From: Mobula hypostoma
Lineage: Eukaryota
Reading direction: 5' to 3'
NCBI RefSeq assembly: GCF_963921235.1
Contig: NC_086097.1
Coordinates: forward strand, 67,706,001 to 67,770,000
Length of the DNA: 64,000 nt
A model generated the notes under the pieces. That model had not been told where the DNA came from and did no database searches. It worked only from the letters and a program-made list of their open reading frames with translations. Numbering within the stretch: the stretch's first letter is position 1; every line of letters starts with the position of its first letter. A program made the position numbers and the translations under genes. Below are positions 18,281-63,640 of this stretch, piece after piece.

Positions 18281-19050
18281 ACACACACAAGATGCTGGAG
18301 TAACTCAGCAGGTCAGGCAGCATCTATGGAAGTGAATAAACAGTCAACATTTCAGGCCGAGACCCTTCATTTGGACTGATAGGAGAGGACAGAAGACCAT
18401 GGAAGAAAGGGAAGGGGCGAGGAGCACCAGAGGGAGGTGATGGGCAGGTAAGAACAGAAGGTGTAAGTGGGAAACAGGAATGGGGAATGATGAAGGAGAG
18501 TGGGGGGGTGGAATTACTGGGTTAGAGTAATCAATGCACGTGCCATCAGGTTGGAGGCTACCTAGATGGAAAATAAGGTGTTACTACTCCAACCTGAGTG
18601 TGGCCTTATCGTGACAGTAGAGGAGGCCATGGACTGACATGTTGTAATGGGAATAAGAAGCAGAATTGAAATGGATGGCCACTTGAAAATCTCGCTCTTT
18701 GTGACGGACAGAGCAAAGATGCTTGATGAAGCAGTCTCCCAATCTACGTCGGGTCTCATCGACACACAGGAGGCCACACTGGGAGCATCAGATACAGTAG
18801 ATGACCGCAACAGACTCACAAGTGAAGTGTCGCCTCACCTGGAAAGACTGTTTGGGGCCCTGAATGGTAGTGAAGGAGGAGGTGTAGGGGCAGGTGTAGC
18901 ACTTGTTACGCTTGCAAGGAAAAGTGCAAGGAGGGAGGTCAGTGAGAAGGGACAAATGGACAAGGGAGTCATGTAGGGAGCAATCCCCGTTGAAAGCGGA
19001 AAGCTGGGGGGGGGGGTGCCTGGGAGGAAAGATGTGCTTGGTGGCGGGAT
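18281..19050 (-). mobile_element. Penelope-like element 3' part (GIY-YIG endonuclease plus terminal repeat with dead hammerhead)
   Basis: TFPCKRNKCYTCP...QVRRHFTCESVAVIYCI, then CSQCGLLCIDETRRRLGDCF. A pyrimidine-rich 3' UTR ends in the 100-bp terminal unit at 18281-18380. Confidence 0.85.
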
Positions 19051-19559
19051 CCTCAGAGCCCGAACATTCGCTGTGCAAGTCTTACTTTACTTTGTTCTTG
19101 ACTGCATTAGATTCCATCCTGCCTGTTTTCCCAGGTGCCCAAGATAACACTACAAACTGTGACAGCCTTCCTCGCCGTCTCCAATCTTGGTGTCATCCGC
19201 GAATTTGCTAATCCAGTTTACTACATTCTCATCTGAATTATAAATATAGATAACAACAGAGGCTTCACCAATCCCTGTGGTACACCACTAGCTCTATGTA
19301 GCCCAGTTAAGATTTTGGTGCATTGTTTAACATGGGGATATAAGAAATAATAACTATGTCAATTTGGCCGACAATAACATCCGAGTTAGAACGTCTTGGG
19401 CTCAACATGTGTTTCAGAGATAGGAGTACAAAATAAGGCTAATGCTCTTAGTGTCATAGTGAGAAATGGTATTGCTAGTACAATACTATCTTTGGTGTGA
19501 AACTTCAAACCATTGATCTGTCTTCTGGATGCAGAAGATAATTTGGACAACTAAAAAGT

Positions 19560-19730
19560 AGAAAGAGTGTTTTGCTGGTGTCTGCTCCAACATCTACCTC
19601 TTAAACCAAATAATTTGTTGTCTGTTCTACTGTCATTTCATAGTTCTTCTGTCCTTTCATCATATTTCCTGCGTGTAACAGGGACTACTTTACAAAAGTA
19701 GCTGGTCATAAGCACTTTGATTATGAAAAT
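19560..19730 (+). mobile_element. Possible highly diverged Deu-SINE (SacSINE1/AmnSINE-like) remnant
   Basis: CTGGTGTCTGCTCCAACATCTACCTC...TTTCCTGCGTGTAACAGGGACTACTTTACAAAAGTA...AAGCACTTTG resembles the Deu domain and 3' tail as I recall them. Confidence 0.35.
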
Positions 19731-19899
19731 AAATATAAACTAATTCCTCATTAAGATATAAAGTATGGTAAAGAAAATCAGTGGGCATTATTTGATATAG
19801 ATGCACCATACAATCCATAGTAAACATTTAATTGGGGCAGTTGGTATATTTAAGCATCAGAATTCACAGTATTGGGCACAGCAGCGCAAACAATACTTC

Positions 19900-20212
19900 G
19901 GACTGACAATCACAATAGCAACGGTTGTCTCCCCTGTCACTGTGGAATGAGTGATATCTGTCTCTCCCTATTTAGTGAGAGAGAGAGCCTGTGGGATATC
20001 AAGAAAGTTGGAGTGAACAGGTAGTTTTTGATGTACTGTAGGCTATGGTCTGAATTTGGGGGATTTGCTGTTGCTGGCATGGTGTGTGGTGGGAATGCTG
20101 ATACTATCTGCTGGAACAAGCGGGGGCGGGGGAGAGGCAGAGTTGATGCTGCTTATGTGGGGGGTGGGGTGGGTAGGGGGCTTTGGGGTTCTTGTGTATT
20201 ATTTCTGTCATT
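19900..20212 (+). repeat. Unclassified non-coding repeat fragment (same family as 41858-42631)
   Basis: Shares GAGAGAGAGAGCCTG...GTGAAC...GGGGGCTTTGGGGTTCT with the 42290-42530 region. Confidence 0.65.
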
Positions 20213-20800
20213 ACACCTGAACCAAAAGGGGTCCAATATCCTAGTGGGCACATTTAATAGAGCTGTTAGAGAGGATTTCAACCAGTTTCTCAGGGGGGTG
20301 GGAACTGGAGTGATAGGGTTGAGGAAGGAGAAAACAGAAATAAATCAAAGATAATGTGCAACAGAGATTATAGAAAGAACAGGAGGGAGATGAGGCTTAA
20401 TCACAGCCAGTGGGATGAGTTACAGGGCAATAGAGGCGGGGTGCAGTTAAAACAGAAAGCAACAAAAACTGGACTGAAAATGTTATATTTGAGTGCATGC
20501 AGCATAAGGAATAAAATGGACAATCTTGAAATTCAGCTACAGATTGGCAAATATGACGTTGTGACCATCTCTGAAACTTGGCTAAAGGATGACTACCATT
20601 GGGAGCTCAACGTCCAAGGATATATAGTATGGTGTATCGGAAAGATAGGTTAATAGGCAGAGAGGGAGAGGGGGTGGAGTGGCTCTGTGTATAAGAAATA
20701 TTATTAATCATCAGAAAGAGATGGCACAGGATTGGAAGGTGTAGAGGTTCTCTGGGTTGAGTTGGGAAATGGAAAGGGTAAAAGGATCCTAATGGCATAT
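20213..20800 (+). mobile_element. CR1 fragment (ORF1 end and APE start)
   Basis: LHLNQKGSNILVG; GLKMLYLSACSIRNKMDNL...YDVVTISETWL. Confidence 0.85.
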
Positions 20801-21743
20801 GTGTACTCATTGCAGGAATTCAATAGCTTCAGATGAAGTCGAAGGTTATTTCTTACACTACCCATTGGGAAATAACTATTTGCAATTCACATTTTGGACA
20901 CGTCACTGAATAAATACAAGTACTTAAAATGAAAATTTCCCTAAAACTGGGATAAGAGTGATTCTAGTAGCTGCTTCTATCATGAAATACCACTGTTCTA
21001 TACTCCACCAACAGAGCTTAGAGGCAGAACTGGAATTCTCTCATCAACCAAACTTATCTCATTTAAATTCAGAAGATTTATTTTATACTCAAATATATAA
21101 CAAAATAATTGAAACATTAGTTTGGTGCTTCACCAAAATTGTACAATAAGTTTTTTTTCCCCTTTGTCTTGCAGGCCATGCCTGAGTGACTTCTATGAGT
21201 AAAGGACAGAACTGTGAATGTGGTGTATATAAGGCATTTGTCAAGATTCCTCATGGTAGGCTCATTCAGAATGCCAAGAGGCTTGGGATCCAGAAAACCT
21301 GGCTGCACGGATTCAGAATGCACTTACCCACATAAGGCAGAGGGTGGTAGTAGATGGAGCATATTCTTCCTGGAGGTCTGTGGCTTGTAGTGGTGTTTCA
21401 CAGGAATCTATTTTGGGACCCCTACTCTTTGTGATTTTTATAAATGACTTAGCTGAGGAATTGGAAGGGTGGGGTAGTAAGTTTGCAGATGTCACAGATT
21501 GGTGATATTCTTGACAGTCTAGAAGTTTGTCATGGTTGCAATGGGACATTGACGGCGTACAGCTGGGCTGAGAAGTAGCAAATGAAGTTCAATCTCGAAA
21601 TGTGTGAACTGATTCACTTTGGATTGTGAAACTCGAATACCGAGTACAGGGCTAATGTCAGGATTCTTAACAAGTGTGAAGGAACAGAGGGATCTTGGGA
21701 TCCGAGTCCATAGATTGCTCAAAGTTGTCATGCAAGTTGATAG

Positions 21744-21878
21744 AAACAAGAGAAAAACTGCAGATGCTGGAAATCCAAGCAACACACCCCAAATACTGGA
21801 GGAACTCAGCAGGCTAGGCAGCATCTATGGAAAAGAGTAAACAATCAACATTTTAGACTGAGATCCTTCATCAGGATG
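21744..21878 (-). mobile_element. Short Penelope-terminus/hammerhead element (core decayed)
   Basis: Family sequence. Imperfect TSD GCAAGTTGATAG (21732-21743) / GCAGGTTGCTAG (21879-21890). Confidence 0.85.
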
Positions 21879-21951
21879 GCAGGTTGCTAGGGAGGTTAAG
21901 AAGGCTTTTGGTGCATTCACCTGTTACTTGGGGAACTGAGTTCAAGAACCT

Positions 21952-22061
21952 CTTTTATTCTCCAGTCCTGCTAAAGGGTCTAGGCCCAAAACGTCAACTG
22001 TACTCTTTTCTATAGATGGTGCCTGACCTACTGAGAACCTCCAGCATTTTGTGTGTGTTGC
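21952..22061 (+). mobile_element. Short Penelope-terminus/hammerhead element (core decayed)
   Basis: CAGTC-CTGCTAA-AGGGTCTAGGCCC-AAAAC-GTC-AACTG. Perfect TSD CAAGAACCT (21943-21951, 22062-22070). Confidence 0.85.
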
Positions 22062-25000
22062 CAAGAACCTTGAGGTGATGTTGCACATCTATAAGACTCT
22101 GGTTAGATTCCACTTAGAGTATTGTGTTCAGTTCTGGTCACCTCATTAGAGGAAGGATGTGGAAGCACTAGAGAAAGTGCAGAGGAGATTTACCAGGATG
22201 TTGTCTGGATAAGAGATCATCTTTTATGAGGAAAGGATAAGTGTGCTAGGGTTTTTTTCTCTTCAGAGCAAAGGAGGATGAGAGGAGACTTGATAGAGGT
22301 GCATAAGATATTAAGAGGCATCGATAGAGTGGGTAGCCAGGGATGGTGGGAGAGGTAAATACACAAGGGACATTCAAGAGATTTTAAATTGGGACATAGA
22401 TGAAAGAAAAATGAAGGGCTGTTTGAGAGAAAAGGGTTAGATTGATTTTGGAGTAGGTTAAGAGGCTGACATAACGTCATGACTGAAGGGCCTGTACAGT
22501 GCTTTACTGTTCTAAGTTCCATGTGCTAAATTTTTGACAAATTAAAGACTAAAATGGAAGATCTAGATTGTGCCAAGAACAGAAACAACTGAAATTAATT
22601 TTATATCCTGTTCACTGAAGCACTAATCTAATGTGAATACATCATGTAGAAATGGATGATCTCCTGACCCATACTACAATCAAACAACTGCTGTAGCATA
22701 TTCTGTCTTTTCAGCTCCAACCATTACCTTAATTATATGTTACTATGTAACAAACCATTTATAATAAGCAACACTTCGGTCAAATATGTGGTAATCTGAC
22801 ATTTAGTGTCCTTGAAGTAAACTATCAGGTAATTTCAATCACAATTCTAATTTTTTTTATATATACACAGAGCTCCTCTTACATAAGTGTATGTATTTTG
22901 ATTGTTATAAATAATACAGTAGTATGCCAGAGTTTGAAAACAAAATACTTAGTTTCACATATTGCACTAAAATTATCCAGCAATAATTTTCCATGAAGAT
23001 TAATTATTAAAACCATTTTCCTATCCATAAATATGGGTTTCTTGCCTTGAAGCAAATGCAAAATGTCCTTTGAGATATTTTAATCATATCTATGAGAGGG
23101 TAGTGTCAAGTGATCCGCGATGGAGCATAAATTACGTGTTCGCTCTGACTGAGCAACAAAGCACAAAACTTGAAACGGCGTTAGTGTGATCCACTATCAA
23201 GATTTGAGGACCGTGAGCAGAATCAAAACCAAATAGCTATTCATTTCAAGAATGAGACAAGATAAAACATAGTACAAGGGAAAATAACCCAAATGTGCAA
23301 GTACTCATACACCTGATCAGTATTGGATTTTCCTCTAACTTTCAACCTTTAGGTTATTTTTTTTTTCTTAGGCTGGTCAGAACCTTGAGATGGTCTTCTG
23401 TATTAAAGATAATAATTAAAATTAACACTTCAGCTGTTGAATGACAAGTTATCCTTCAGTTTTTTTGTGTAATAGTCAAGGTGAGTAGAAGAAACATGTG
23501 TACAAAGGACATAAGCCAACTGCTACCCATGCAAAGCAGAAACAACTAGGAGAGACAATGTTCTTTCTCCTGTTGTTGGCTGGGAAACCACTCATCTTCC
23601 TAATGGTGCATTTTTAAGATTGGGAAGACCCCTGTCCAGTGCAGGAATACAGGTGGTGGGACCCTTATCAAGTGCCACTGAATCAGTTATTTCTTTGCAT
23701 AATATATATAGTGAGAGTGGAAGTCCCACGGATGGGTACATTAATGGATTTGCTCTGTTTCACAATGCAATATTTAGGAGAAGCAAGGGATACATTTTCC
23801 TGTGTTGTATCCTCCAACTCTGTTTGCATGATTTGATGATTTTTCCTCTTACAATGATTAAAACAATTTTGGAGTTTTTGAGTTGTTCACTTCCTCTATC
23901 AAAAAAAATATTTGCAGGACTTTTACTAAACCCAGAATATCAATCAATTCTTGGTTGATTAAGAACAAAGGAAATAATGGCTAATGCGAAGCAATGGATC
24001 AGTTTTAACTGCAGTGAAAATGTCTTTACAGTATTATAGAAACACCTGATGCCATTTTCAAAACATTAAACTGTGATTATCTGAGTGCCAGTATATTCTG
24101 TTTTAACTAATCCAACAGCATAGATGTGCTTTCAATTTACCATTAGCATGTATGTGTGTGTCTGTGCATACATGGGAGCAAACGTCTTGAAATGTAGCAA
24201 GCTACATGGAGTGTGAAAATAAAAGAAGTCACTGGGAGTCTATTGTCAATATGCAGAAGCCATGAAGCATGGAGAGCAAAAGAATGATCATTTCAGGTGA
24301 ATCACTTGATCTGCTGAATTTTTCCCAGTATTCTCTGTTTTCATTTCATATTTTCAGCATCTACAATTCTTCTTCTCTTTTTAAACTTATTAGCATGCAT
24401 CATCTGCTGTCCATCCACTGATGCCAATTGGAAGACATGCTGGAAGAAAGCCTGCTTAGGATTTGATCAGCTGTAAAATCAGATACCTCTATATTTTTAT
24501 TCATACACATGCTGCTGCTTCTTTAACATGGCAAAAGGTATATTCAGCCAGTTGTGCTGACTGCTGTGTAATGCTCTAACTTTATTGTGGCACTCCATAA
24601 ACCATTATGTCATGTTGATTTTTTGGAGATCAGTATATTGGATCACTTCAATAGTCTTTACAATAGCAAGGAAGAACTCAAATCATATTCAATTTTTTCA
24701 CTATAATACCTTCACATTCAATTTTGTGACCTTCCATATCAAACATTCACATGAATTACAAATCGATTTAGGTGCGTTTAGTTGCTGAGGCTGATTACCT
24801 GAAAGCAACGGTGGTAGAGGACAGGGTGGTGGGACAGTTGGTAATGCGATAAGTACACATAATGTAGGATCCTGCACCCAGTTGAGAACTCTTCCATCTG
24901 AGTCACTGAGAAAAACTTAATTAATTCATCACGGACTCCCCCCAGCACTTGACAGCATCTCTTACAGAAGAAGCTACAAGTTGGATCTTTGGTTGCATTT

Positions 25001-25610: not shown

Positions 25611-26194
25611 TGGGCTGGTAACCAAAAATCAACAAAGAACATCTAATTCTATATTGACATTATTTCATTTTATTTTACTGCTTTTACTTATTTGCTAGTT
25701 TTATTGCACTTTGAATTAACTTCATATTACTATTCAAATCAATCTGAGTTATTTTTTAAATGCCCCTGGTGAATAGAGACATTTAAAAACTGCTGAAAAG
25801 CTTTGTGGACAGCCAGTGAGCTCTAGGAGCTGCTTCAAGGATGGGACCTCATGACAGGGATGCCTTTTGCAGTTTGTCTCACATTGAACGCCAGGTTTGG
25901 GAGGCGGAAGTTTAGATGAAAGGGGTAGGGGTTGCCACATGCCCAGCACACATTGCACCTGGAATAGTAAAATAGTTAGGGATTACAGATGATGAATCTG
26001 GAAGCATGGACAATCCAGCTAATAAAAGTTTCTAGGGTTTTGATAGGGTAGAAAGTGGTTGGAAGATATTTTAGCCATCAAGTTCAAAAATTGAAAGGGG
26101 TGGGCAGTTGCTTTCAGAGATGCAGAAAAATCTCAGCTGGTGTACAACGTTACCTTACCGGCATGGTTTTACTGATTTGCCTTTGATTTGACTT

Positions 26195-26300
26195 CTCTTT
26201 CTTTCTGGACCTGATGAAGGGTCTCAGCCCGAAACATTGACTGTTTACTCTTTTCCAGGCCTGGCCTGCTGAGTTCCTCCAGCATTTTGTATGTGTTGCA
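26195..26300 (+). mobile_element. Short Penelope-terminus/hammerhead element
   Basis: CTGATGA-AGGGTCTCAGCCC-GAAAC-ATT-GACTG; stem I is decayed. Confidence 0.85.
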
Positions 26301-28319
26301 TTGGAGGACATTTTCCCCAGTACAGCAAAGAGCAGCAGCAGCCTCAGATAGGAGGGGAGGGGGGAACTGAGGAGCAAAATCATCATCACACACCAGAAAT
26401 ATGCTTCCTGGGAATTCTCTGCCCCAGATGCTGCAGAAAATTTGTTGTTCAGGTTAGTCTAGATATATATCAATAGTTAATTGGATACTAACAGAAGCAA
26501 GCTATTTTGTCATTGGTAGAATTCTTGAATGGTAGAGCAGGATAGAAGACGTGAATGACACATTCCTGCTTTTATTACTTATGTCCTTGCATTTGCCCCA
26601 TATTCCACAGGTTTGCCTGGCAAACAAGGCAACCCCTAAAGTTACCTGGGAAGGATGAAGACACACCAAAGCAGAAAGAAGTGCAAGACACTGAGATAAA
26701 GCATGGACTATTGAGACTACCAATTTCCATTGCTTTTCTGTAACAAACAACAAATATCTTGGTTGAATTCTTCTTGTCCCTCTTTTCCCAATTTCCCTTA
26801 TATTTTCCTGACGTGGAATTTCAGGATGTATATTGTATACATTTCTCCGACATTAAATGCACCTATCGAAACCTATTGAACCTGATTTTTATATCACCAT
26901 GGTTAAAGCCATCACTTCATTAGGTACATCTAAAGAACAAGAAGCCTAATTCCAAACTAAGATGTAAAAAGACTGATGAAAACTTTTAGTTTGTGAAAAT
27001 TCGGTGATGATTAGAAATGACCTTGCCTTTTCAAGACTTGCAAAATGAAAACCTGTTGCTAGTGGTTGGTGAGGTCAAATAACGCTGACTTTGAAGAATT
27101 TATTTGTAACTGTAAGCAGCCAGGTTCACTTATCCCCACCAACTTCCGAGCACATGGGTACCTTGAGTGGCTGTAGGAGATGGAAACATGCTGCCATCTT
27201 TGGATAGCACATTACGTGCCTTTCCATAATAAATTGCCACCTCAACGAATCTGCCCCTCAGCACTCCCGTTGTCCCAATTAACATCAGAATGAAGCAGGG
27301 TGATTAAAACAAAATGAAGACTTCTACTCACACTTTCTTCCAGGATTTACAGCCTGACAAGCTGGAATACAAAACCACAACAGGAATATCAGACTTGTCA
27401 TCAAAGCATGCCAGGCATTGGTATTATCATGGTTGACCACAATTATTCGACGCATAACCAAGTGATCCACTCTCAATTATTGTCTAACATTGAATCAGTC
27501 AGTTTCTTGTATCATTTCAGCGAGGTCTTGATCCAAATGTTCTTCAGTTTAATCTGCCTTGCCACATCTGCCATTGTTACAGGATGATTTAGCTTGACCC
27601 CCAGTGGCACTGAGCGGCTACATCCTCCTGGTAATGTACCCATCAAGCACTTCCAGACTGAATAAAATTCTCATAGTCCTTCTAGGACTTGTTGGCTGCT
27701 GCCTTGCAACAGTGAGCTAACTATGGTAGCTGGCCTCCCTTTAAGGAGTCTTGACTGCTTTATCATGATTTCCTGCCTTGCAAGTTAGTCCATAAACAGC
27801 AGGAGTGATGGTTGGCAGCTTGCCAATCACTGTCAAATGAACCATGGGCCCTTGTCTCACACTGATTGCACTGGGTTTGCATATTAATTATATGCTCATT
27901 GGCAATTAATTTCATCAAATATTTGATGTCTCTTCAATTATTAGTAAAATGTATTTGGAATTATTTGATCTTGCTGTTCCCTGTCTTACCACAAGTACAA
28001 ACTGAAACATTTTCAAATCTTTTCCTATCATTCTCCTTAAGGTCATAGCCCGGGGGAGGGGGGCGCGGTGAGGAAGGGGGAAGGGAGGTACTGGAGATAA
28101 ACTCGCACTTATATTAAATACTCCCAATGGCGTGCATCTCAAATAGCCTCTGACAACCAAGTCCAACTTCTGGCGTTCACATATGGCTGAGTTACTAAGC
28201 CTGGCAGACCATTTCCACTGACTGGAGAAGGGGCAAAGGTTGGTTACTGGCACCTTAATAGCAGTTGCTTCGTGTAAATGGGGAAAGTCTGTTGTGGTTG
28301 GCAGCTCATCATAATTTCA

Positions 28320-28470
28320 AACACAAACATGAGAAAATCTGCAGATGCTGGAAATTCAAGTGACACTCACATAAAATGATGGAGGAACTCAGCAGGCCAG
28401 GCAGCATCTAGGGAAAAGAGTACAGTCGACATTTCGGGCCAAGACCCTTCATCAGGACTGATGAGAAAAA
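28320..28470 (-). mobile_element. Short Penelope-terminus element
   Basis: Family sequence AAACATGAGAAAATCTGCAGATGCTGG...GAGGAACTCAGCAGGCCAGGCAGCATCTA. Confidence 0.88.
28423..28460 (-). ncRNA. Minimal type I hammerhead ribozyme, near intact
   Basis: Minus strand reads CAGUC-CUGAUGA-A-GGGU-CUUG-GCCC-GAAAU-GUC/GACUG. Confidence 0.75.
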
Positions 28471-29247
28471 AAGAATAATTTTTTAAACCTCCATTGCCTT
28501 GTAGCTCTAGTCATTCATGAGGAAGGCTCTGGTAGTAAACCCCGAGGAAAAGTCCGGAGCTGGAGTCACTAAGGCAGTCCAACGCTGAATTCAACACTGA
28601 CTAGCAACTCCTGCGATGCTGCTGGTGCCAAACTGTATCGGCCTCTGCCATTGCTTTGGACTCACAGCTGCATGGAGAGGGGGAGTCTGCTGCACGGGCA
28701 ACAGCTTGCTCTCCGTATCGTACTGCTCTGGCTTGTGTGTCGACTTTGACAGCAAGGATGCACGAACAATGGTTGACCTCGACCAACCGAGGGCCATCCA
28801 AGAGAATTTCACTCTAAAATAGTTGCAATGAGCAATACCATGTGGGTGTGGGAAATTCTGATTCTGTCCAATTGAAACTTCACAGGGGAAGACAATGGAT
28901 GAATATTCCTGCCATTAGAACAGCTGTCTTCCTGCCACTTAATGCACAGTTTAGAAAAGATTTGTTTTATTGCTTAACTTTCTAGTCAGTTGTATGTCCA
29001 TGGAGTGATCCTTCAACACTATAACAAAAGAGGTATATTTGGGTCTGTTGTATTCAAGAGACTTTTGGAACAGACACTAGCATTAAATATTCAGAGAGGT
29101 TCCACTAGTTGCGATGTGCTACCATTAGAAACAAGCGATTTTGTAACTTTACCTGACTATATTCAAAATGTTAAAGTTAAATTAACTGCAGTTCATCATT
29201 TATTGTTTTGTGGTGAAAAGTATAAAACGTGTCAGGAGAGTAAATTT

Positions 29248-29580: not shown

Positions 29581-29932
29581 GTTTTCTTCCTGGAGGTTTG
29601 CTGTGTGAATAAAGACTTTTATGTTTCCCATATCAGTTTCCGTGTGGCTCAGTGTTAGTCCGTCACATCAGTTGCAATGAACAAATAGTATAAAACACCA
29701 TTTTCCAGCTATCAACATGTACATTTGCCATGAGGCCCCAAACTTATGAGCAATAAAACTCATTCTGCTCAAGCACTCAAACATCAGTTATTACAATATT
29801 CCTCGAGCATCTCCACTCCATCCGCAAAAGCAGACTTTTCCGGTGGCCAACCAATTTAATTCCTATCCCCATTCCAACATGTCCAAATTTTGTAGTTTTT
29901 CTTTTCTTTGCTACTTTGAAATTCCCCAGAAG

Positions 29933-30123
29933 GGAAGTGTACTGTTCCCAGAGGCAATGCAATACCAGGTCGATGCGTGGAGTGGAAGGAGCAAGCCCCT
30001 ATTCCATCTCCCTGTTCCAAAAAATCAATTTAACATATGGTCCCCAGATAAGGGACGTATCAGATATTAAACTGATAAGAACAGATACTACACTTGATCT
30101 TAGCCAAAAGGCCGAGAAGCAAT
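29933..30123 (-). ncRNA. RNU2: U2 spliceosomal snRNA, full-length copy (probable retroposed pseudogene)
   Basis: Minus strand reads ATTGCTTCTCGGCCTTTTGGCTAAGATCAAGTGTAGTATCTGTTCTTATCAGTTTAATATCTGATACG...Sm site ATTTTTTG...CCTGGTATTGCA...AACAGTACAC. It sits inside repeats and has a TSD. Confidence 0.97.
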
Positions 30124-30134
30124 TGACATGTCCA

Positions 30135-32172: not shown

Positions 32173-33029
32173 CAATTATACTATCCACGTCCTCCTCTTT
32201 TGCCATGATGTGATCACCCCAAGGGTGGAGGAACAACACCTCATATTCTGTCTAGGTAGCTTCCAACCTCATGGCATGAACATCCATTTCTCCTTCTGAT
32301 AATTTTTCTCCTTTACTCTTCCATTCCCCAATCTGGCCCCCTTCCTCTCCTCTTCATCTGCCGATCAACTACCCTGGCGTCCCCCTACCTTCCTTTCCCT
32401 CTGGTGCACTCTCCTTTCCAATCAGATTCCTTCTTCTCCAGACCTTTACCTTTCCCACCCACCCGGCTTCACCTATCACCTAACAGCTGGTCCCCCTTCC
32501 CTTTCCCTTCACCTTTTTGATTCTGGCATTTTCTCCCTTCCTTTCCTGTGTTGATGAAGGGTCTCAGCCGAAACACTGACTGTTTATTCACCTGCATAGA
32601 TGCTATCTGACTTACCGAGCACCTCCAGTATTTTGCGTGTGTTGCTTTGGATTTCCAGCATCTACAGAATCTCTTGTGTTTATTGGATCCCTCTACCAAT
32701 GGCACATCTTATACCTTCCATAACCTAGATCTCATCGTTGGTGCCCATGTCTTTTCAGAGTGATGGAATCAAATTGAATAATCATCATTGTTCAGTGATC
32801 TACAGGGGCTTCAAGTCAAGCTGAATTCCAATTCTGAAATTCCCAGTCTTGCTTACATTTCCCTTGATAGTCTCACCTCTTCATAAGCTTGTCTACACGC
32901 ACAATCAACTTGATTCATGCAGTTCCTGAAATCTAACCTCTCACTCCACGACAATTTTCTTTTATCTATCATTGGCACCTTTGCCTTTACCTGAACAAGC
33001 TTGATATCTTACAGAATGGAGATGATGGA

Positions 33030-33235
33030 ATTTGGAGCAACAAGCAATATTCCTGGAGGAATTGAAGGGGTCAAGCAGCATCTATGGGGAGAAGATAATC
33101 ATTTCTATTTCAAGTTGAAATCACACAAGCATCCTAATGCAGGTTTCAACTTGACACATCGACAATTCCTTACCCACCATCCTCAAATGCTGTTCAACCC
33201 ATTTACAGTCTGCAGTAGATTGCTTGTGACACTAA
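33030..33235. repeat. Old diverged inverted pair related to the Penelope-terminus family
   Basis: CTGGAGGAATTGAAGGGGTCAAGCAGCATCTATGG, then TTTCAAGTTGAAA / TTTCAACTTGACA, then ATGCTGTTCAACCC. Confidence 0.5.
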
Positions 33236-33319
33236 ATCTCTTCTCCTTTAACATCTTCCTCAAAGTTATTTGTCTTAGTATTTCCCAGTGCCAGCTTTGC
33301 TTTATTAGCTAACCTACAT

Positions 33320-34050: not shown

Positions 34051-34059
34051 TCATTCAAA

Positions 34060-48850: not shown

Positions 48851-49076
48851 TACAAACAAGAGAAAATCTGCAGATGCTGGAAATCTAAGCAACGTACACA
48901 AAATGCTGGAGGAACTCAGCAGGCCAGGCAGTATCTATGGAAAAGAGCACAGCTGATGTTTTGGGCCAAGAAACATTTTGGTCCTGCTAAAGGGTCTTGG
49001 TCCGAAATATCGACTGTACTCTTTTCCATAGATGCTGCCTGGCCTGCTAAGTTATTCCAGCATTTTGTGTGTGTTG
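48851..49076. mobile_element. Inverted dimer of the Penelope-terminus/hammerhead element
   Basis: Two opposite copies form a ~85-bp-arm hairpin, flanked by TSD CAAAATACATC (48840-48850, 49077-49087). Confidence 0.88.
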
Positions 49077-50399
49077 CAAAATACATCAAAGTGATTTTTA
49101 TTTTAAAAGAATTATGTATTTCATCGTTCAGCTGCTGCAAAGTTAACAAATTTCACAACATATGCCAGTGAGATTAAACCTGATTCTGATTCTGAAAATG
49201 ATGTAAAAAGGTTAACTGAGATTCCATTTTAAATATTATCTCTAATAGCTATCAAAGTTCCCAACCAAATAGGTTGACAATTGAGAAGTTAAGCGCATTT
49301 CTAACACGATAAAATCTGGCGATCTATGAAATAATAGTGCTTGTAACTTTTGTAAATAAACTGTTTTCAGTTATAGGTTCGTAACACTTAGCCCAAAGAA
49401 CAACTATGTAGTGATGTGGAAATGAAACCATTACTAGGGTCAAAGGAAGGGGGATACACTGTTTATAAACTAATGGAATGTGGTAATGTATAATATACAC
49501 TTCTGGAGTGTTGTAAGTTTAAAGTAATTAAATTTATCTTCTATTTTCCTCCCCTTAATTCTCTTATGTTGTGGACCCTCCTCTATCAGAAAATAGACTT
49601 GATACCCAGGTGTCTGACTTTGTGAAATGCACACAGGTCGTTTTGGTCCCTGTTGGCCAATTCCTATGGGTTCCCAGTTGAGAATGGAAAAGCATTGTGG
49701 CTGGAATCAAGAACACAGGGCTACTTACCAGCACTAGCTAATGTGACACTTGCAATATTCACCATTGCATTCTCATCTATTTTTGTGGAATCACTTCCAT
49801 TCTCTATCAACCATGAAGTGTATCCTGGACTCCAGTTAACATGAAGTTTAAGTTTCTGTGACTATGCTTCCATTATTTATTTGTTAATGTTAGATACTGA
49901 AATCCATTTGAATACATACATAATGTTGCCATTCTCATTGATACTGGAGTACCCAAGTACAAATTCAAGCCTTGGCTTGGATTTTCAGCATGAAGGTAAT
50001 TTCGATCTAGTGCTCCTTGGAGAAAATTTAAACAATCAGTCAATAGTCCATCTTATGCCACATTCTGGACAGCAGTGGAAAGCAAGTTTACAATGGACAC
50101 TAAATTTTGCAGATGTATCAAGATGGTGGAGAAATCCAATCTTTTGAAAATAGAGATTAGGATATATTGGGAAAATGGACCAAACAATAATTAATCGTTT
50201 TTGATCAAAAACATGCAGTTTAATGCAGGAAGCTAGAATCAACACACAAAACACACAGAGAACAATTCTGATAAAGGGTCAGAGTATTATTGTGCACATT
50301 TTACTTTGGGAGTGAAGGCGCAAAGTTACTTCAACTGAACCATTCATAAGGTATACATACAGAGAATTAATGATGTGAGAGGCCTGTCATGAGTATAAA

Positions 50400-52230
50400 A
50401 CATGTAGGGAGGCACTCGAAAATATTAGGAAGACTAAGTGGGATCATTAGTCTTATCAGCAGACAGGATTAAGGTACATCCAAGGGAGTACTGTAAAAGT
50501 AAAGGGACAAACAGGGAAAGGACATGGTCCATTTGGAAGAAAAGAGACATTTTGTATGTGGAACCAAAGAAAGGTAAAGACAAGGTTCTCAATGAATACT
50601 TTTCATTGCTATTCACAATGGAAATAGACTTCACAGTTGGATTTCCATAGATGTTGCCTGGCCTGCTGAGTTCTTCCAGCATTTTGTGCGTGTTGCTCTC
50701 ATGTTTGTAGTTGAAGGGGTAGGTGCAAGTCTAATGTGGGTCTCCTTAAATGAAGAGGAGGTACTCGATGCCTTGACATGTTTAAGGGTAGTTAAATCTC
50801 CAGGACTAGATGAGATTTATCCCAGGGTTCTGGCTGAGATGTTAAAATCTTCATTGGACACAAGTGAGGTACCAGATAACTGGAAGGTAGTAAACATGGA
50901 CCCTCTTTTCAAGAAAGGCAGCAGGGATAAGCCTTGTTATTTAAAACCTATGAACCTAATATCTGTAGTAGGGAAGATACAGTATAAGAAAAAAACATTG
51001 AGAGAGAGGATTAATGTTTACTTGGAAAGGCAGGGATTAATGTAGCTTTGTCAAGGGGCAGATCTTGCATGACCAATTTGATTGAATTTTTGAAGAAGTA
51101 ACATGCATCAATAAGGGCAGGGCAGTAAATGTGATTTATATGACTAGTTCTGACATGGTTTAAAAGGTTAGGGTCTAAGGTGCCCAGGACAAGTTGGCAA
51201 ACTGGCTTCAAAGTTGGCTTGGTAATAAGGGAGGGTGAAGAGAAGGGTTGTTTTAGCAAATGGATGTCTCTGACTAGTCATTTCCCAGAAAGATTGATGC
51301 CAGGGCCCTGACTGCTTGTAAGATACATGAATGACTTGGATGTAGATGTGGAAAGGAAAATCAGTAAGTTTGCGGATGACATGAATATTGGCTGATTTGT
51401 TGATAGTGTGGAATGTAATCTTAGGCTCCAAAGGAATATCGATGCATGGGTAAAAAGGACTGAAAAATGACAGGTGTTAATTAATCCAGGCAAACGTGAG
51501 ATAATGCACTTTGAAAGCACAGATAAAGCTAGTACATAAATTATGAACAGTTCTAGGAGTACTGAGGAACAAAGGGACTTTGGAGTACAAGTCCATAGAT
51601 CCTTGATGGAATCAACAGAGTAGATAATAGGCTAGGAAGCCATTGGACTCTAGAGCATTGAATATAAAAATAGGGAGGTTATGCTCCAACTTTATATACA
51701 AGTCTCAATCTTGTTTAGATGAAGAACCACATGCAGTTCTGGTCACCAGAACGTGACAGTACTGACAGTGAAGGACGTGACAGTACTGGAAAGGAGATTC
51801 ACCAGGATGTTGCTTGGGATGGAGCAGTTAATGATGATGAGATTTCAGTGAAGGTAGGTCTGTTCTCCTTGGAGTAGAGGAGATTAAGAGGTGCCATAAT
51901 TGAGTTATATAAAAGTAGGGGGTATAGGAACCATTTCTCCTTATAAGAGATAACAAAAAACTGTAGGACCTGGAGGGTAAAGCCAAAGCGATATGGAGGG
52001 GATTCAAAGAGGCTTTCTTCACCTAGAGAGAGATGAAAACCTGAAAAGCACCGCATGAGAGAGTGATTGAATCTAGATCACTGACAGCACTTAAGAAGTG
52101 TCAAATTGAGTATTTGAAAAGCTTAGGCCTAGGGAGCTGTGGACCAAGTGTTACGTAATCGGATTAATATGAAAGGATGCTCATTGGTTAGTAGGGAAGA
52201 ATTGGACCTAATATCTGTTTCCGTGCTTTG
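50400..52230 (+). mobile_element. Decayed CR1 ORF2 fragment
   Basis: KSPGLDEIYPRVL...VPDNWKVVNMDPLFKKGSRDKP; MNDLDVDVERKISKFADD at ~51328. Confidence 0.85.
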
Positions 52231-57974: not shown

Positions 57975-59834
57975 GAAAAAGTAGACCAATTCCCTACCTT
58001 GGCAATGAGACATTGACTCAGAGATCAACCACTGCATGAGTAGCGTTATTTGGAGCTATGCAAGATTAAGGAAAAGAATTTTGACAACTGCCTATAGTGC
58101 AGTTGTCCTTCCTACATTACAGCATGGAGCTGAATCATGGACCACTTACTGCAGGTACCTGAAAGCCCTGGAACAATAATACCAAAGAACCTTACAAAAG
58201 ATTTTGGAGATCAGCTGGAAGGACAAATGCACTACATCAGTGTAGTGGAGGAGGCCAACATGAACAGCATCTCCACCACGATAAAGCAACACCAACTCTG
58301 CTGAATAGGTTATGTTATCTGGGTGCCTAATTCATATCTTCTCAGATACTTTATTCCCAATTGAAGGATGGTCAATGAGTCCCTAGAGGGCAAAGGAAAT
58401 GCTTCAAAGATAACTTCAAAATCAGCCTGAAGAAATTCAACATCACATCTAAAAACTGGGAAGACATTGCACTCAATAGATACACCTAGAGAAAATCTGT
58501 TCAAGAGGGAGCTGCGCTACAATGAATGTGACCTCTGCAATGGTGCAAAGAATAGGCAGCAACTGCAAAAGTTAATCAAAAGACCCAACCACCAACCACA
58601 GGTACCACTTACTCTTGCCTCACACTGCATCAGAATACATGGATCAGCCTCCTAAGGACCTACCTTGGTAGAACATCACACTCGACTTGAGTGAATGCGC
58701 TACTACTCGGCTGAAGAAGTTTTGTTACCTCTTCCAGGAAATTACATGGCAGCCAAGCATCACAAGTGTGGAGCAAGCTTGATACATGGTAACAGTTTAC
58801 CTTCCATTAAAGTTAATAGAAAATTAAATGCAGCACTTAGAGAGTTGTTTCTTGCAGTCCTGCAATGTTAGTACATTCATAACTCAGCTATAACTCAGCT
58901 GGAGTCAAGAGAAAATTAAAATTGGGAAAAAGTATAACTGTTGACACTTGATCTGCTAAGTCTCCTCCAGAAACATTATACTGAGATTACCTCCATTAAA
59001 TTTCAGTCTAAAGCATGATTTACCAGAGCAGCCAAATGAGATTATTCACCGAGCATATTTTAAACATATTTATTTTATTTTATGGCGGGATTTATAATTA
59101 ATATTGCAACTTAATTTAGATCATGACATGCACTATTCCCTTATCAAGAAATGCAATTACCAGCTTATTTACAGATCTTTAAAGCAACCAGAATATTCAG
59201 AATTACTCCCAAAGACAAAATGCCAAGGCTTCTGGAACCAGAAATTTTTTAAACTGTGAATCACATTACTAACTTCTATGTTGTAAACATGCTATTTTTA
59301 AGCAATAACACTTGACATTTCATTGCAAATTACACAACATAAACCAGTAGTTTTCCAGAAGGCCTGCAAAATTACTTTACTGATTTATAGATCTGGACAG
59401 ACTTCCCTGACAGAAAAAAATATTTTTCTATTTTATCCAGCTTTGTTTTGCAATCCCTGGTTAGCAAGCGAGTGATGGGAGATGGCTTCCTAATGCCATG
59501 TTAATTAAGACAAAGCATTCCGTTGGAACATTTGATACACTTGCCAAACTACAAAGTCTATTTTCCACACTGAAATTCTCTTTCCAATTACAGATTCTGT
59601 TTTATTACTTTAGGACTTTTAGTAGGCTTAAATATAATTTAGAAATCTATGCATTTGCACAATATAATAAGCAATAGCCATTAAATATAAGTAAGTGATC
59701 TGTTTTATTGATAGTTCCCTTTTTCTGGGAACAGGAGATATTTTTATATGAATGGGAGTACTCTGAGCTCATTGAGGTAATGGTGCATCCACTGCAATAC
59801 ACACAAAATTGCAGGAGGAACTCAGCAAGTCAGG

Positions 59835-60985
59835 CAGTAATCTCTGGATTGCTGCCTGTGCCACATATCAGTGAGGGTAAGAATAGGATGATTTGGCAGG
59901 TGAATGCACGGCTGAGGAATTGGTGCAGGGGACAGGAATCCAGATTTATGGATCATTGGGATCTCTTCTGGGGAAGGTATGACCTGTACAAAAGGGTTGG
60001 GTTACACCTGAACCCAAGGGGGTCTAATAATCTCGTGGGCAGGTTAGCTAGACTTATTTGGGTGGGTTTAAGCTAATTTGGCAAGGGGATGGGAAACTAG
60101 AGTAATAGTGCTTAAGATGAGGTAGTTGGTTTACAAACAAAGTCAATGTGTAGTGAAACTCCAAGTATGGAGAGGCTGATGATAGGGAAAAATTGCAGTC
60201 AACAGGATGAGTTGAAATGTAAAAGGTGAACAAAATTAAAAAGGGTGAACATAGGACTGAAGGTGTTATATTTGAATGCAAGCAGTATATGGAATAAGGT
60301 CGATGAACTTGTAACCCAGTTACAGATTGCATGTATGGTGATATAGGCATCAGTGAATAATGACTGAAAGAATATTATAACTGGGAGCATAATGTCCATG
60401 GATATACATAGTATCAAAAGGACAGGCAAGAAGGCAGAGAGGGTGGCATTGCTCTGTTGGTAAAAAATGAAATCAAATCATTAGAAAGAGGTGACAGAGG
60501 GTCAGAATGTGTTGAATCACTGTGGATGGAGCTAAGGAACTGCAAGGGTAAATAGACCTTGTTGGGAGTTATTTACAGAACCCCAAACAGCAGCAGGGAT
60601 GTGGTTTGCAAGTTACAGTTGGAGATAGAAAATGCATACCAAAAGGGCAATGTTACAATGGACATGGTCGATTTTATATGTAGTTAGATAGGTAAAAATC
60701 AGGTTGGTGCTGGATTCCAAGAGGGGTAATTTCTGGAATGCCTACAAGATGGCTTTTTAGAGCAACTCATGGCTGAACCCACTAGGGGATCAGCTATTCT
60801 GGATTGGGTGTTGTGCATTGAACCAGAACTGAGGTAACAGACCCTTAGGGGAAATGATCATTATATGATTGAATTCATCCTGAAATTTGAGAAGGAGAAG
60901 CTAACGTCAGATGTATCAGTATTACAGTGGAGTAAAGGGAATTACAGAGGCATGAGAGGAGTTGGCCAGAGTTGATTGGAAATGT
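59835..60985 (+). mobile_element. CR1 fragment (ORF1 SGNH-esterase domain plus APE)
   Basis: VISGLLPVPH...LRNWCRGQESRFMDHWDLFWGRYDLYKRVGLHLN; GLKVLYLNASSIWNK. Confidence 0.88.
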
Positions 60986-60989
60986 TAGA

Positions 60990-61305
60990 GATGTTTCTGC
61001 CGACAGGGACTGACTGTGGCCTTTCTGGTAAGAAGTCCAAGACTCAGTTATAGACAGAGGTGTTGAGACCCAACGAGGACCGTTTACTCACCAACTTCTG
61101 AAGAATAACTATATTCAACACCAAGCTGAAGTCAATAAAGAGCATCCTGGCATAAAAGGTACTATTTTCCAGATGGGATAGGATGGAGGGGAGGGCAGAG
61201 GCTCTGATATCATCAGTGGGGCTGACTTGAGCAATAAGCGAACTGGAAGGGGCCCAAAGTAGCAGGAAGATGGGATTTAATGTGATCTATAAACAGCCAC
61301 TCTAC
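60990..61305 (-). mobile_element. Rex1-like RT fragment
   Basis: Minus strand PFQFAYCSS...HLENSTFYARMLFIDFSLVLNI. Confidence 0.7.
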
Positions 61306-61444
61306 TCGAGAACGTGGAAAATTTTCCAGATACTTGTTTGCAAAAGCAGGACCCATTTACGTTTTGTCAGGGCAACTGGCTGCAGATATCATTACAGCCT
61401 TAGTTCAAACATGGCTCAAAGATATAAATTTCAAAGACCGTAAT

Positions 61445-62133
61445 GCTATAAGATATAGGAGCAGAATTAGGCTATTCAGGCCATCGAGTCTGCTCTGTCA
61501 TTCCATCATGGCTAATCCCAGATCCCACTCAACTTCATAGACCTGCCTTCTTGCCATATTCTTCGATGCCCTGACCAATCAGGAAAGATCAACTTCTGCA
61601 TCAAATATACCCCTGGAGTTGGCCTCCACCGCAGTCTGTGGCAGAACATCTCACAGATTTCCTACTCTCTAGCTAAAAACGTTCCTCTTGAACTCTGTTT
61701 TAAAAGGTTTCTCCTCAGTTTTGAGGCTGTGCCCTCTAGTTCTGGATACACCCACCTTAGGAAACATCCTCTTCACATCCACCCTATTTAGTTCTTTCAA
61801 TATTCAGTAGGTTTCAATGAGATCTCTCTGCATTCTTCTAAATTCCAGTGAATACAGGCCCAAAACTGCCAAATGCTCCTCATATGTTAACCCCTTAATT
61901 CATGGTTTCATCCTCATGAACCTCCTCTGGACTCTTTCTAATGGCAACACATCCTTTCTGAGATATGGGACCCAAAACTGTTGACAATACGCTAAGTGCA
62001 GTCTGACTGGTGTCTTATAAAGTCTCAGCATTATCTCCAATGGCAACACATTCTTTCTGAGATGAGGGGCCCAAAACTGTTCACAATACTCCATGTGCGG
62101 CCTGACAGGTATCTTATAAAGGCTCAGCATTAT
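61445..62133 (-). mobile_element. CR1 3' fragment with internal 99-bp tandem duplication
   Basis: MLSLYKIPVRPHMEYCEQFWAPHLRKNVLPLE repeated as MLRLYKTPVRLHLAYCQQFWVPYLRKDVLPLE. Confidence 0.85.
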
Positions 62134-62134
62134 G

Positions 62135-62302
62135 TAAACAACAGGAATTCTGCAGATGCTGGAAATTCAAGCAACACACATCAAAGTTGCTGGTGAACGC
62201 AGCAGGCCAGGCAGCATCTCCAGGAAGTGGTACAGTCGACGTTTCAGGCCGAGACCCTTCGTCAGGACTAACTGAGGGAAGAGTTAGTAAGAGATTTGAA
62301 AG
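62135..62302 (-). mobile_element. Short Penelope-terminus element (distinct, CpG-retaining subfamily)
   Basis: AAACAACAGGAATTCTGCAGATGCTGG...GCTGGTGAACGCAGCAGGCCAGGCAGCATC. Confidence 0.88.
62233..62270 (-). ncRNA. Minimal type I hammerhead ribozyme, core intact
   Basis: Minus strand reads UAGUC-CUGACGA-A-GGGU-CUCG-GCCU-GAAAC-GUC/GACUG. Confidence 0.8.
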
Positions 62303-62857
62303 CTTTATTCAGGCGTCAGTGGTAAGATCAGCTACCTGCCTTTGAGAGGGTGGTGGTGAGCCACTAGAATCTTGTTGGACTAAGTGGTTCCATGATATTT
62401 GAAGGAAAAATATGAAGTCACATCAAGACAGTATCTAACGAAGTGTAGTTGGAGGTGTTTGGTAAAACAGAGCTCACTAGACATTAAGAGATAAACACAC
62501 TGTTGCACAAAGGAAGGTGGTTTTGTTGGTGAATAAATCCAACCCCAGGATTAGGCTCAACTGCCTTCCAACAAAATGTCAGAAGTGAGAATATTCATTG
62601 ATGATTGCAGAAAATAATCTCCATTGAAAATTCATGCTGGCATCCAGCAAGAAAACGCTGATAAGTAGCAAATACCACCTCTGTCAACTACTTTTGTGAA
62701 GTTCCTCATCAATAACACCATTAACCAGAAACTCATTAGGGCCAGCCACACACACAATGACAACAGGAGTACATCATATCCTCTGACTCACTTCCTGAAA
62801 CCTCATAACCTCATATCAGCAGTATGATGGAATGCCCTCCTGTTGTTTGTGGAGTAA

Positions 62858-63368
62858 AGGCTGATTTATACTTCTGCGTCAAATGGACGCTGTAACCTAC
62901 GTAAGTGGCCTACTCACAATGCTAAGTCGTGAGCATTTATACTTGTGCATTGGTGTGTCTGCTTCACTCTGCAATTCGCGCATGTCACGCATGCGCACAC
63001 ACCTGCCCGTGCAAGGCTTCATGGTCATGGTAGTCTTTCTCGGGGTAAACACGTTTAAAGCGAGCATTTTCTTTGTAAAAGTGATATGTGTCCTCCATAA
63101 TATTGGAGGTCTGTAAAGCTTTATGGAAAGCATTGCAGCCAGAGTTCCTTCCCTGCTCTTCAGTCGCCCAATGGGAAGCTACTGTAGCTAAGGAGGAAAT
63201 GCAATGCTACCAACCAGACCAATCACAGTTGTTGTGGTGTGCATTGCTGCGACACGTAGTTACATTTTGGGAGAGGTGCATGTCAGGCTACGGCGTAGAC
63301 ATCCACGTAGGGTTCGCGACGACGCCGTACTTACGGCGCCCATTTGATGCAGAAGTATAAATCAGCCT
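62858..63368. mobile_element. PIF/Harbinger (Tourist-like) MITE
   Basis: TIRs AGGCTGATTTATACTTCTGCGTCAAATGG / CCATTTGATGCAGAAGTATAAATCAGCCT; TAA TSD (62855-62857, 63369-63371). Confidence 0.9.
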
Positions 63369-63501
63369 TAAGGCTCCAACACAACTTTCAAAATGCTAAC
63401 CAGAAAAGGTAGTTGCTTGATTGCTACCCAGTTGACTACCCCAAAACATTTCTTGTCTCTACCACCATTGCTTCTTGGTTGCAATGGAGGTATGCACTGT
63501 A

Positions 63502-63640
63502 TGTCCTGCTGAAGGGTTTTGTCCCGAAACATCGACTGTACTTTTTTCCATAGATGCTGCCTGGCCTGCTGAGTTCCTCCAGCATTTTGTGTGTGTTGCT
63601 CGGATTTCCAGCATCTGTAGACTTTCTCGTTTGTGATACA
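63502..63640 (+). mobile_element. Short Penelope-terminus/hammerhead element (CUGCUGA variant)
   Basis: GTC-CTGCTGA-AGGGTTTTGTCCC-GAAAC-ATC-GACTG; TSD ATGCACTGTA (63492-63501, 63641-63650). Confidence 0.88.

Follow-up and report, generated by a model that had tools for sequence, protein, structure and literature searches.

The window (the whole stretch of DNA that was analysed, 64,000 nt) contains dispersed repeats that correspond to the final 100-135 bp of a Neptune-type Penelope-like retrotransposon, itself abundant, and consist of a minimal hammerhead motif followed by an optional 35-bp tail. Their 5' ends pile up in a hotspot at the front edge of the hammerhead, and an RNA 5' end at this position, deduced from the DNA copies, is likely. 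The reading that we favour, and regard as somewhat probable, is that reverse transcription, primed at two internal sites, runs to the end of a linear RNA that starts at the hammerhead edge, with the long copies deriving from tandem or circular RNA. Apart from its very high abundance, the repeat family is of an ordinary kind; what makes it valuable is that it records a mechanism.

Repeat copies and their parent element

Element coordinates take C3 of the hammerhead core as 0, with minus upstream and plus downstream. The window contains 14 copies of the repeat, the two arms at 48851 counted separately:

18271..19053, minus strand: Neptune-type 3' fragment with Zn-finger and GIY-YIG remnants, model -822 to about +97; ~157-bp deletion in the 3'UTR, hammerhead end without tail
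21744..21876, minus strand: solo stub, -2 to +131, tailed; core decayed
21950..22074, plus strand: solo stub, about -19 to +98, untailed; A6>C core, exact 9-bp flanking repeat
26182..26306, plus strand: solo stub, about -18/-28 to +100, untailed; intact core, 7-bp deletion downstream
28323..28474, minus strand: solo stub, -18 to +133, tailed; core and stems intact, ACGU palindrome gone
29799..29884, plus strand: upstream piece, -510 to -415, collinear with the 32181-32682 copy, with a 2.3-kb insertion between
32181..32682, plus strand: ORF C-terminus, 3'UTR, decayed hammerhead and tail, -416 to +132
33017..33118, minus strand: very diverged stub, +13 to +116, 21 bits
35530..35642, minus strand: solo stub, about -6/-15 to +97, untailed
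48853..49081, arms on minus and plus strands: head-to-head pair from one insertion event, with an exact 11-bp repeat around the whole pair; tailed arm on minus (+11 to +132), untailed arm on plus (-3 to +99)
50642..50701, plus strand: stub without hammerhead, +41 to +100
59785..59848, minus strand: diverged stub without hammerhead, +43 to +104
62137..62304, minus strand: young-subfamily stub, -39 to +128, tailed; core, both stems and ACGU kept
63503..63632, plus strand: solo stub, -3 to +129, tailed; A6>C core, exact 10-bp flanking repeat

The repeat is present at all 12 places listed in the earlier note (12/12), with 48851 resolving into two arms, and the weak copy at 33017-33118 is additional to that list. 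The very high copy number proposed there is borne out as well: density is 196 copies per Mb in a 1-Mb sample, and the genome-wide estimate is ~0.68 million, so that the one copy per 6 kb read from the window compares with ~1 per 5 kb across the genome. Approximately 9% of the 1-Mb sample matches the 3' 1.1-1.4-kb models, some low-complexity matches being counted in, and five shuffled windows gave 0 matches with the 3' end. Two copies had been taken for the ends of GIY-YIG Penelope fragments; the one at 18281 does end a fragment with Zn-finger and GIY-YIG remnants, whereas that at 32545 is a C-terminal end of the endonuclease region only. The report of TSDs around four solo copies stood only in part, since the exact repeats of 9 bp (21952) and 10 bp (63502) both fall just under the threshold with a measured chance rate; the 8-bp match at 28320 is internal and not a TSD. 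In the same scan, the 11-bp repeat enclosed the entire 48851 pair.

The proposed origin from a Penelope 3' terminus is confirmed, as the stubs correspond to the repeat that terminates full-length elements. The hammerhead repeat forms the end of two full-length pLTR-ORF-pLTR copies (L096, L097) as well as of 18 further long-ORF copies, mostly 94-99% alike, and intact, young full-length copies of the parent element are present. L096 has a 1043-aa frame with Pfam matches to RVT_1 (E 0.004) and GIY-YIG (E 0.001), both under the curated cut-off, and the element protein has 1330 homologues at E<=1e-20. A single ORF with RT and C-terminal GIY-YIG, a partial-tandem pLTR, an optional 30-40-bp tail and an inverted 5' arm were all found, as in EN+ Penelope-like elements. 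The translations display CX4CxxC, DKG and CxxC, the motifs of the Neptune/Nematis type, which is characterized by a CX2-5CxxC linker finger, DKG, and a CCHH whose two cysteines lie between GIY and YIG (PMC8557442). The label "Neptune-type" is thus probable, given these motifs and the reported presence of Neptune and Poseidon in vertebrates (bioRxiv 10.64898/2026.07.22.740005).

The consensus and stems drawn in the earlier note fit the window copies, and its minimal type I hammerhead is right, with a CUGANGA...GAAA..UH core, stems I and II and a palindromic stem III. Across 10 window copies, 84% of stem I and 95% of stem II cells are paired, compared to 16-47% with slid partners; covariation is not demonstrated, because 50-98 of 500 column shuffles reached the observed pairing. 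The core and both stems are intact in 32/44 young, 5/107 older and 3/10 window copies, with ACGU also kept only at 62135 among the latter, and the decay of the core is neutral and CpG-type. An Rfam search did not call the hammerhead. An A6>C core is found in three window copies (21952, 48981 and 63502) and in 17/116 older copies, and the occurrence of this variant in both short and long copies (7 and 5 members) suggests that the hotspot may work without hammerhead catalysis.

Ends of the copies and the one-tail rule

The census of young copies (n=154) covered one chromosome end, the first 6.4 and 8.4 Mb of C1, where every exact match to two 33-mers was collected. Two fixed 3' ends, 35 nt apart, were observed, at +92..99 in untailed and +127..129 in tailed copies. 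At the 5' side, 30/122 young copies end within -8..0, where 3.3 would be expected (binomial p about 3e-20), and the stop hazard is 0.033/nt at -8..-2, 0.002-0.005 at +10..+60 and ~0.001 upstream of -60. The peak occupies no single base, with about 5-16 copies per position from -7 to 0 and a shoulder to -40 (89 rows, by eye), and the commonest ends, also judged by eye, start with G or AG (-3, -4 and -7). Older copies stop at -8..-2 in 31/97 cases, while planted controls were miscalled there in 1/174, and the same hotspot is present in all six subfamily clusters. A TSD lies within 16 bp of the 5' end in 14/16 non-inverted hotspot copies, and TSDs adjoin the element directly at -8, -5, -4 and -3. 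The position of the peak is identical in tailed and untailed copies, indicating that it does not reflect a fixed cDNA length, which was rejected as its cause.

The earlier note's observation that copies do not start at the cleavage site also holds, the pile-up being at the hammerhead 5' edge. Starts at the cut site (+28) account for 16/100 rows by eye, and 9 of the 13 fetched are explainable by microhomology; cleavage-site starts were rejected as the main rule, with a small +28 excess remaining. In one other organism, loose contig ends were seen at -3 and -4, although these are 2 selected of about 790 rows and contigs cannot show starts; a comparison with old-type contigs was confounded by the diverged pyrimidine tract, and neither observation is counted as evidence here. 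The contigs came from runs presumed to be RNA.

Head-to-head pairs carry a single flanking duplication per pair. Among young unique inverted pairs, exactly one arm is tailed in 50/50, and the two arms share a haplotype, differing at 18/282 diagnostic sites versus 39% when shuffled. An older random sample followed the one-tail rule in 48/58 arms, with 8 short-short and 2 tail-tail.

Proposed mechanism and alternatives

According to the reading that we favour, the RT would prime at either of the two internal sites bounding the 35-bp tail, and running off a linear RNA with its 5' end at the front edge of the hammerhead would yield the stubs. This RNA 5' end may reflect clustered transcription starts or trimming back to stem I. 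A protein dimer would prime both broken DNA ends, one per site, with both primings using a single RNA or RNAs of common source. Long and full-length copies would arise from a second class of template, tandem read-through or circular RNA, that has no end at this position. Junction copies, whose tail runs into the 5'UTR, support this reading (30 loci; there are 408 such copies in all, and a second junction variant gave 34 matches). Of those primed only 74-303 nt further in, 4/7 stop at +10..-13 and 0/7 extend past -126. Those with at least 860 bp of ORF stop at this upstream hammerhead edge in only 1/15 cases, compared to 4/7 and 47/132 (Fisher p=0.02 against each class). This test is small, its classes were drawn after the data were seen, and the 860-bp limit is set by the alignment and does not prove full length. 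Counting against the favoured reading are the breadth of the peak, the unbroken linkage across the hotspot, the exceptions to the one-tail rule among older copies and the restriction of the young census to one chromosome end. A more specific version, which we put forward only tentatively, is a two-template Penelope cycle, in which a dimer would use two sites 35 nt apart on a single RNA to prime the two sides of a staggered cut, linear mRNA would give strong-stop-like stubs (hundreds of thousands), hammerhead-cut and re-ligated 3.5-kb circles would give long copies, tandems and the pseudo-LTR, and internal priming would let transcribed stubs carry upstream host DNA. The 5' hotspot, the one-tail rule and the difference between first and late passage provide three predictions for RNA-end mapping and an in vitro assay.

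It is rather unlikely, in our estimate, that the template is instead a continuous RNA and that the RT drops off just past a protein-bound or folded hammerhead, having lost its RNA anchor, and is processive later. The Poseidon protein is thought to bind the hammerhead region and assists cleavage (PMC11167929). Two observations are in keeping with such an early drop-off: the hazard is elevated to either side of the peak and falls off gradually, reaching background by -60, and in young as in old subfamilies the peak falls on the 5' strand of stem I. The free late passage of junction copies with a long ORF part (1/15) also speaks for it. However, the junction copies primed only 74-303 nt further in still stop at the hammerhead edge and do not extend past -126, and the folding energy of the module is no more stable than that of shuffles (z -0.7 to +1.0). 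Structure-caused RT stops usually occur at the 3' foot of a helix, which also counts against drop-off at the hammerhead.

An acceptor-like sequence, a pyrimidine tract followed by AG at -7 or -3, lies upstream of stem I, raising the question of whether stubs derive from RNA spliced at the hotspot. The prevalence of G- and AG-starting ends fits a 3' splice acceptor, as does a D. virilis intron that ends at helix I (PMC4209133), but the TSDs that adjoin the element leave no exon between, and we assign splicing a very small probability. The idea that 5' truncation is random, and that misalignment of the variable pyrimidine tract creates the peak, is scarcely credible: long copies do show a smooth, low hazard and the upstream tract is diverged between subfamilies, but the peak persists in young copies that are 92-100% identical and whose ends are defined by TSDs, the controls were rarely miscalled, and the census of young copies rejects it. 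Extreme 5' truncation, which the earlier note considered the simpler explanation, stands in that the copies are truncated Penelope ends, but does not account for the clustering of their 5' ends. Strand transfer between RNAs at the hotspot was likewise rejected, as no linkage break was detected there (|D'| 0.74-0.83 across versus 0.75-0.80 upstream), in a test blind to a jump within one RNA. Extension of the tail into the 5'UTR is similar in short (6/29) and long (5/23) copies and so does not separate these classes.

The earlier note had also raised the possibility of a SINE- or retrozyme-like family mobilised by the Penelope RT. Such a family would be independent and non-autonomous, would have a separate 5' end and would be amplified from short copy to short copy. 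Defined ends and TSDs, a weak nearest-neighbour label signal (p=0.048), one haplotype with 12 short and 5 long copies, and the fact that stubs and rearranged copies can be re-copied are compatible with such a family. In the tree, however, short copies formed no separate clade, with 23 label changes versus 25.2 +/- 2.1 when shuffled (p=0.21; ~90-bp alignment, limited power), and no lineage of their own by this alignment. None of 7 diagnostic sites has a variant exclusive to short copies, every common haplotype occurs in both short and long copies, and short copies are present in all six subfamily clusters, which have the hotspot in common. No tandem arrays were found among 196 copies, only 9 loose same-strand neighbours (gaps of 56-262 bp), and TRF detected no head-to-tail hammerhead units in the window, the arrangement that defines a retrozyme. 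Furthermore, the stubs consist of partner sequence from the first base, with no tRNA, 5S or 7SL head and internal promoter as in a SINE. Intermixing in the tree, the lack of tandem arrays and a mostly decayed ribozyme, with its neutral CpG core decay, argue against a separate SINE or retrozyme family, which we consider highly improbable.

Mobilisation of stubs in trans does happen at least occasionally. At C1:2960799, 300 bp of flank and a +36 stub, 98.5% identical to C1:170428, lie inside a new 14-bp TSD, a single case of a hammerhead-less stub re-copied with its upstream flank. Any read-through RNA with the last ~95 nt could be copied, and stubs would thus serve as occasional templates in trans. 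Because priming would be internal, every stub in a transcribed region could carry upstream host DNA to new sites, and if stubs act in this way, they would provide a 5' transduction route in cartilaginous-fish genomes.

Comparison with known systems

Solo minimal hammerheads of Penelope elements have already been published. Those of metazoan PLEs (PMC4209133; Cervera & de la Pena 2014) are alike in being type I with a loop-less palindromic stem III and an unpaired base before stem II, in having G10.1-C11.1 (here in old subfamilies), and in residing in pLTRs and being mostly dispersed, single or on opposite strands, which those authors read as truncated PLEs. In coelacanth and Xenopus, 4,000-9,000 motifs were counted, by methods that differ from those behind the ~0.68 million copies here, and the part of that paper drawn on here reports no fixed 5' end, unlike the hotspot in our data.

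Insertions of EN+ PLEs of the Neptune/Nematis type (Craig 2021, PMC8557442; Arkhipova 2013, PMC3846280) likewise exhibit 5' truncation, partial-tandem pLTRs, an inverted 5' arm, a 30-40-bp tail that is often at one end only, and pLTR-mediated mobilisation of other DNA in trans. Quantified here in addition are the one tail in all young pairs, the common haplotype of the arms and the positional 5' hotspot. Head-to-head units were explained by self-priming on an antisense template (PMC3846280), whereas here two primings on a sense template would produce them. Regeneration of the pseudo-LTR in Penelope elements has been called open (PMC2377424).

Animal non-LTR retrozymes (PMC7229834; bioRxiv 10.64898/2026.07.22.740005) share a type I hammerhead, kinship with PLE pLTRs and a non-coding nature, and dispersed monomers are counted among them. 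They are tandem repeats by definition, with canonical hammerheads and circular RNAs in PMC7229834, unlike the dispersed or inverted stubs with minimal, mostly decayed motifs described here.

The only full-length Penelope protein studied in vitro is Poseidon PAc (Frangieh 2024, PMC11167929), for which internal RT initiation at two tail-bounding sites, cleavage and extension of both DNA strands, and insertion for which hammerhead catalysis is dispensable were reported. Poseidon belongs to another clade, without the linker Zn finger, and its ORF starts inside the hammerhead, while here the young ORF has its first in-frame ATG past the tail; the main text on Poseidon describes no 5' stop site. In both elements, the two internal sites of initiation flank the tail and lie near the pLTR-ORF junction.

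Hammerhead copies in the window and their parent element

The repeat was present at every place where the earlier note had listed a copy, and one weak extra copy brought the total to 14 in the 64 kb of the window, while no copies with a 3' end were found in five shuffled windows. With position 0 set at C3, the first core C of the hammerhead, positions -5 to -1 of stem I pair with +28 to +32 and the predicted cut falls between +27 and +28; the minimal hammerhead layout proposed from sequence alone fits the copies. Covariation in the hammerhead stems was not demonstrable, and conservation was no better in the core than in its flanks. Core and both stems were intact in 3/10 window copies, 5/107 older random copies and 32/44 young copies; the majority of copies are decayed. 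Four solo copies had been credited with target site duplications (TSDs), but exact flanking repeats were found for two, with another enclosing the inverted pair of the window.

The copy at 18281 carries a 3'UTR deletion from -162 to -5 (at window 18376-18378). Deletions in the pyrimidine-rich 3'UTR, in this copy and in locus L019, end at CAG or a pyrimidine tract, and the entire hammerhead is absent from L019. The main form of the young subfamily (loci L093-L112) has U instead of C at stem II position 11.1 (+19), which changes a usually conserved G-C pair.

A protein search of the 3.48-Gb genome returned 228,434 candidates; 135 of them were scored, and their open frames reached ~1,100 aa. Twenty long-frame loci are mostly 94-99% alike. 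The closest named proteins to the ORF are from shark (70-73% identity), which suggests a cartilaginous fish as host. Two loci (L096 and L097) have the form pLTR-ORF-pLTR, where pLTR is a pseudo-LTR, and this pLTR ends in the repeat. The motifs read in the ORF were DKG, a CX4CxxC linker finger and CxxC inside GIY-YIG, a combination that PMC8557442 gives as the signature of Neptune/Nematis. Judged by these motifs, the parent element carries this signature, the assignment being to the joint type and not to either clade. The repeat belongs to a very abundant Penelope-like element (PLE) family of known kind: in a sample of 100 evenly spaced 10-kb stretches, 196 copies retaining the 3' end were counted (bootstrap 166-227; 155/196 scoring at least 40 bits), which extrapolates to ~0.68 million genome-wide. 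Three young motifs gave 13,549, 41,189 and 16,665 exact genome matches, and tail-to-5'UTR junctions gave 374 + 34. At locus L086 (40.0 Mb of contig C40), 10 kb of pyrimidine-rich repeats with a ~3-kb period produced many weak profile matches without 3' ends; this stretch is probably an unrelated satellite.

Other features of the window
29932-30123 (within 29876-30140), minus strand: full-length U2 snRNA copy (Rfam, 173 bits)
3143-3223: near-perfect inverted repeat of 81 bp, with weak Rfam miRNA matches below gathering score
61940-62133: tandem repeat, two copies of 99 bp, within LINE-like DNA

The U2 copy has ~45 additional bases at its 3' end, is flanked by a direct repeat of 10 bp (by eye) and lies within a Neptune fragment adjoining LINE remnants; it is likely an inserted retrocopy. 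The inverted repeat is possibly a small MITE-like relic, and the tandem repeat directly adjoins the young stub of the window.

Copy ends and the standing of the short copies

When copy ends were plotted, as the earlier note had proposed, the 3' ends were fixed, at +92 to +99 or +127 to +129, two ends that correspond to the PLE tail; the 5' ends were not random. In a random genome sample, 44/191 uncensored copies started at -10 to -1, and the stop hazard among 140 non-young copies was 0.055/nt at -8 to -2 versus 0.002-0.003 upstream of -60. Planted controls were miscalled at this hotspot in 1/174 cases, their sources being model-fitting copies, so that the control is weaker for very divergent subfamilies. 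The young census took every exact match to two downstream 33-mers at one end of contig C1 (n=154); 122 of these copies extend to position 0, and 30 of the 122 stop by -8, compared to 3.3 expected from the downstream hazard. The hotspot position is identical in tailed and untailed copies, and the TSD lies at most 16 bp from the 5' end in 14/16 non-inverted hotspot copies, several abutting it exactly. The peak is broad, with 12, 5, 6, 16, 16, 11, 12 and 11 starts at -7 to 0 (by eye, after 11/100 rows resembling long copies were dropped). Searches of the open literature (subscription papers and repeat databases lay outside this scope) gave no title or abstract that mentions a fixed 5' end at a PLE hammerhead; the supplements of bioRxiv 10.64898/2026.07.22.740005, which cover one chondrichthyan, may list the family.

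The earlier note had raised an independent SINE- or retrozyme-like family, with solo copies as a clade of their own. Short events (5' end -13 to +3, n=35) and long events (beyond -100, n=53) were compared using one arm per event and leaving out mixed events. Their labels changed 23 times on the tree versus 25.2 +/- 2.1 when shuffled, placing the short copies among the long ones, and a nearest-neighbour label test was borderline (p=0.048). No sites exclusive to short or long copies and no arrays of the repeat were found, and each of the six subfamily clusters (5-25% diverged) includes hotspot copies. These results give no support to the SINE or retrozyme reading.

Even so, a stub is not invariably a dead end. 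At C1:2960799 a single TSD of 14 bp encloses two arms, one inverted and one tailed, together with 300 bp of foreign flank and a stub from +36; this flank and stub are 98.5% identical to C1:170428, where the stub has its own TSD. In a second joined copy, 350 bp of flank from another locus (99-100% identical) is fused to an arm that has few variants in common with that locus, which points towards template switching. One internally inverted copy was seen at two loci.

Candidate causes of the hotspot

Of 30 loci compared in which the tail runs on into the 5'UTR, 20 have at least 860 bp of ORF, and in the other ten priming lay just 74-303 nt beyond the tail. Among the former, 15/20 reach +10, and only one of these 15 stops by -13, versus 47/132 in the census (p=0.022). 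Of the near-tail-primed loci, 7/10 reach +10; four of these seven stop by -13 and none extends beyond -126. Neither a single class of mRNA with a wall at -4 nor a barrier encountered at each passage fits. Two template classes fit the junction data: a linear RNA starting at the hammerhead edge or slightly upstream, and a tandem or circular RNA. Full tandems spaced 3,510-3,516 bp account for three among 34 junction-variant matches. A first-passage checkpoint at the hammerhead fits almost as well as the two template classes.

A6 of the hammerhead core is essential. An A6>C variant with both short and long members suggests that the hotspot arises without need of hammerhead catalysis. Starts at the cut site, +28, were seen in 16/100 rows versus 1-2 at +27, +29 and +30 and ~10 at +23 and +24 (by eye); among the +28-start copies fetched, microhomology was present in 9/13 and absent in four, one of which is a repeated jump from +28. 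These starts hint, weakly, that a minority of templates is cleaved.

The tail-5'UTR junction also lies inside short tandem repeats with units of about 260, 310 and 510 bp, which are candidate products of copying from small circles or of recurrent template jumping.

Short tandem repeats bearing the junction (contig and positions)
C2:157816723-157817376
C2:122542762-122543057
C50:94984163-94984709
C1:1876744-1877035

Inverted pairs and a proposed double priming

A head-to-head partner accompanied 80/154 young copies, and all 50 unique young pairs combined one tailed and one untailed arm. A direct repeat, mostly 11-17 bp, surrounds the whole unit in 44/50 pairs, and paired arms differ at 18/282 diagnostic sites versus 39 +/- 3% when shuffled. 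The one-tail rule was followed by 48/58 arms in older copies. Six of the 30 junction loci (L353, L354, L358, L360, L373 and L381) have their ends 133-163 bp beyond the tail, which suggests that the start of the ORF holds a third, minor priming zone.

The hotspot, the one-tail rule and the asymmetry between first and late hammerhead passage, as real or suggestive features, render the PLE copying cycle testable. According to PMC11167929, the Poseidon protein, a predicted dimer, initiates at two internal sites in vitro and both cleaves and extends each of the two strands. Given the one-tail pairs, the likeness of their arms and this in vitro result, each insertion event would involve two primings, on one RNA or one source.
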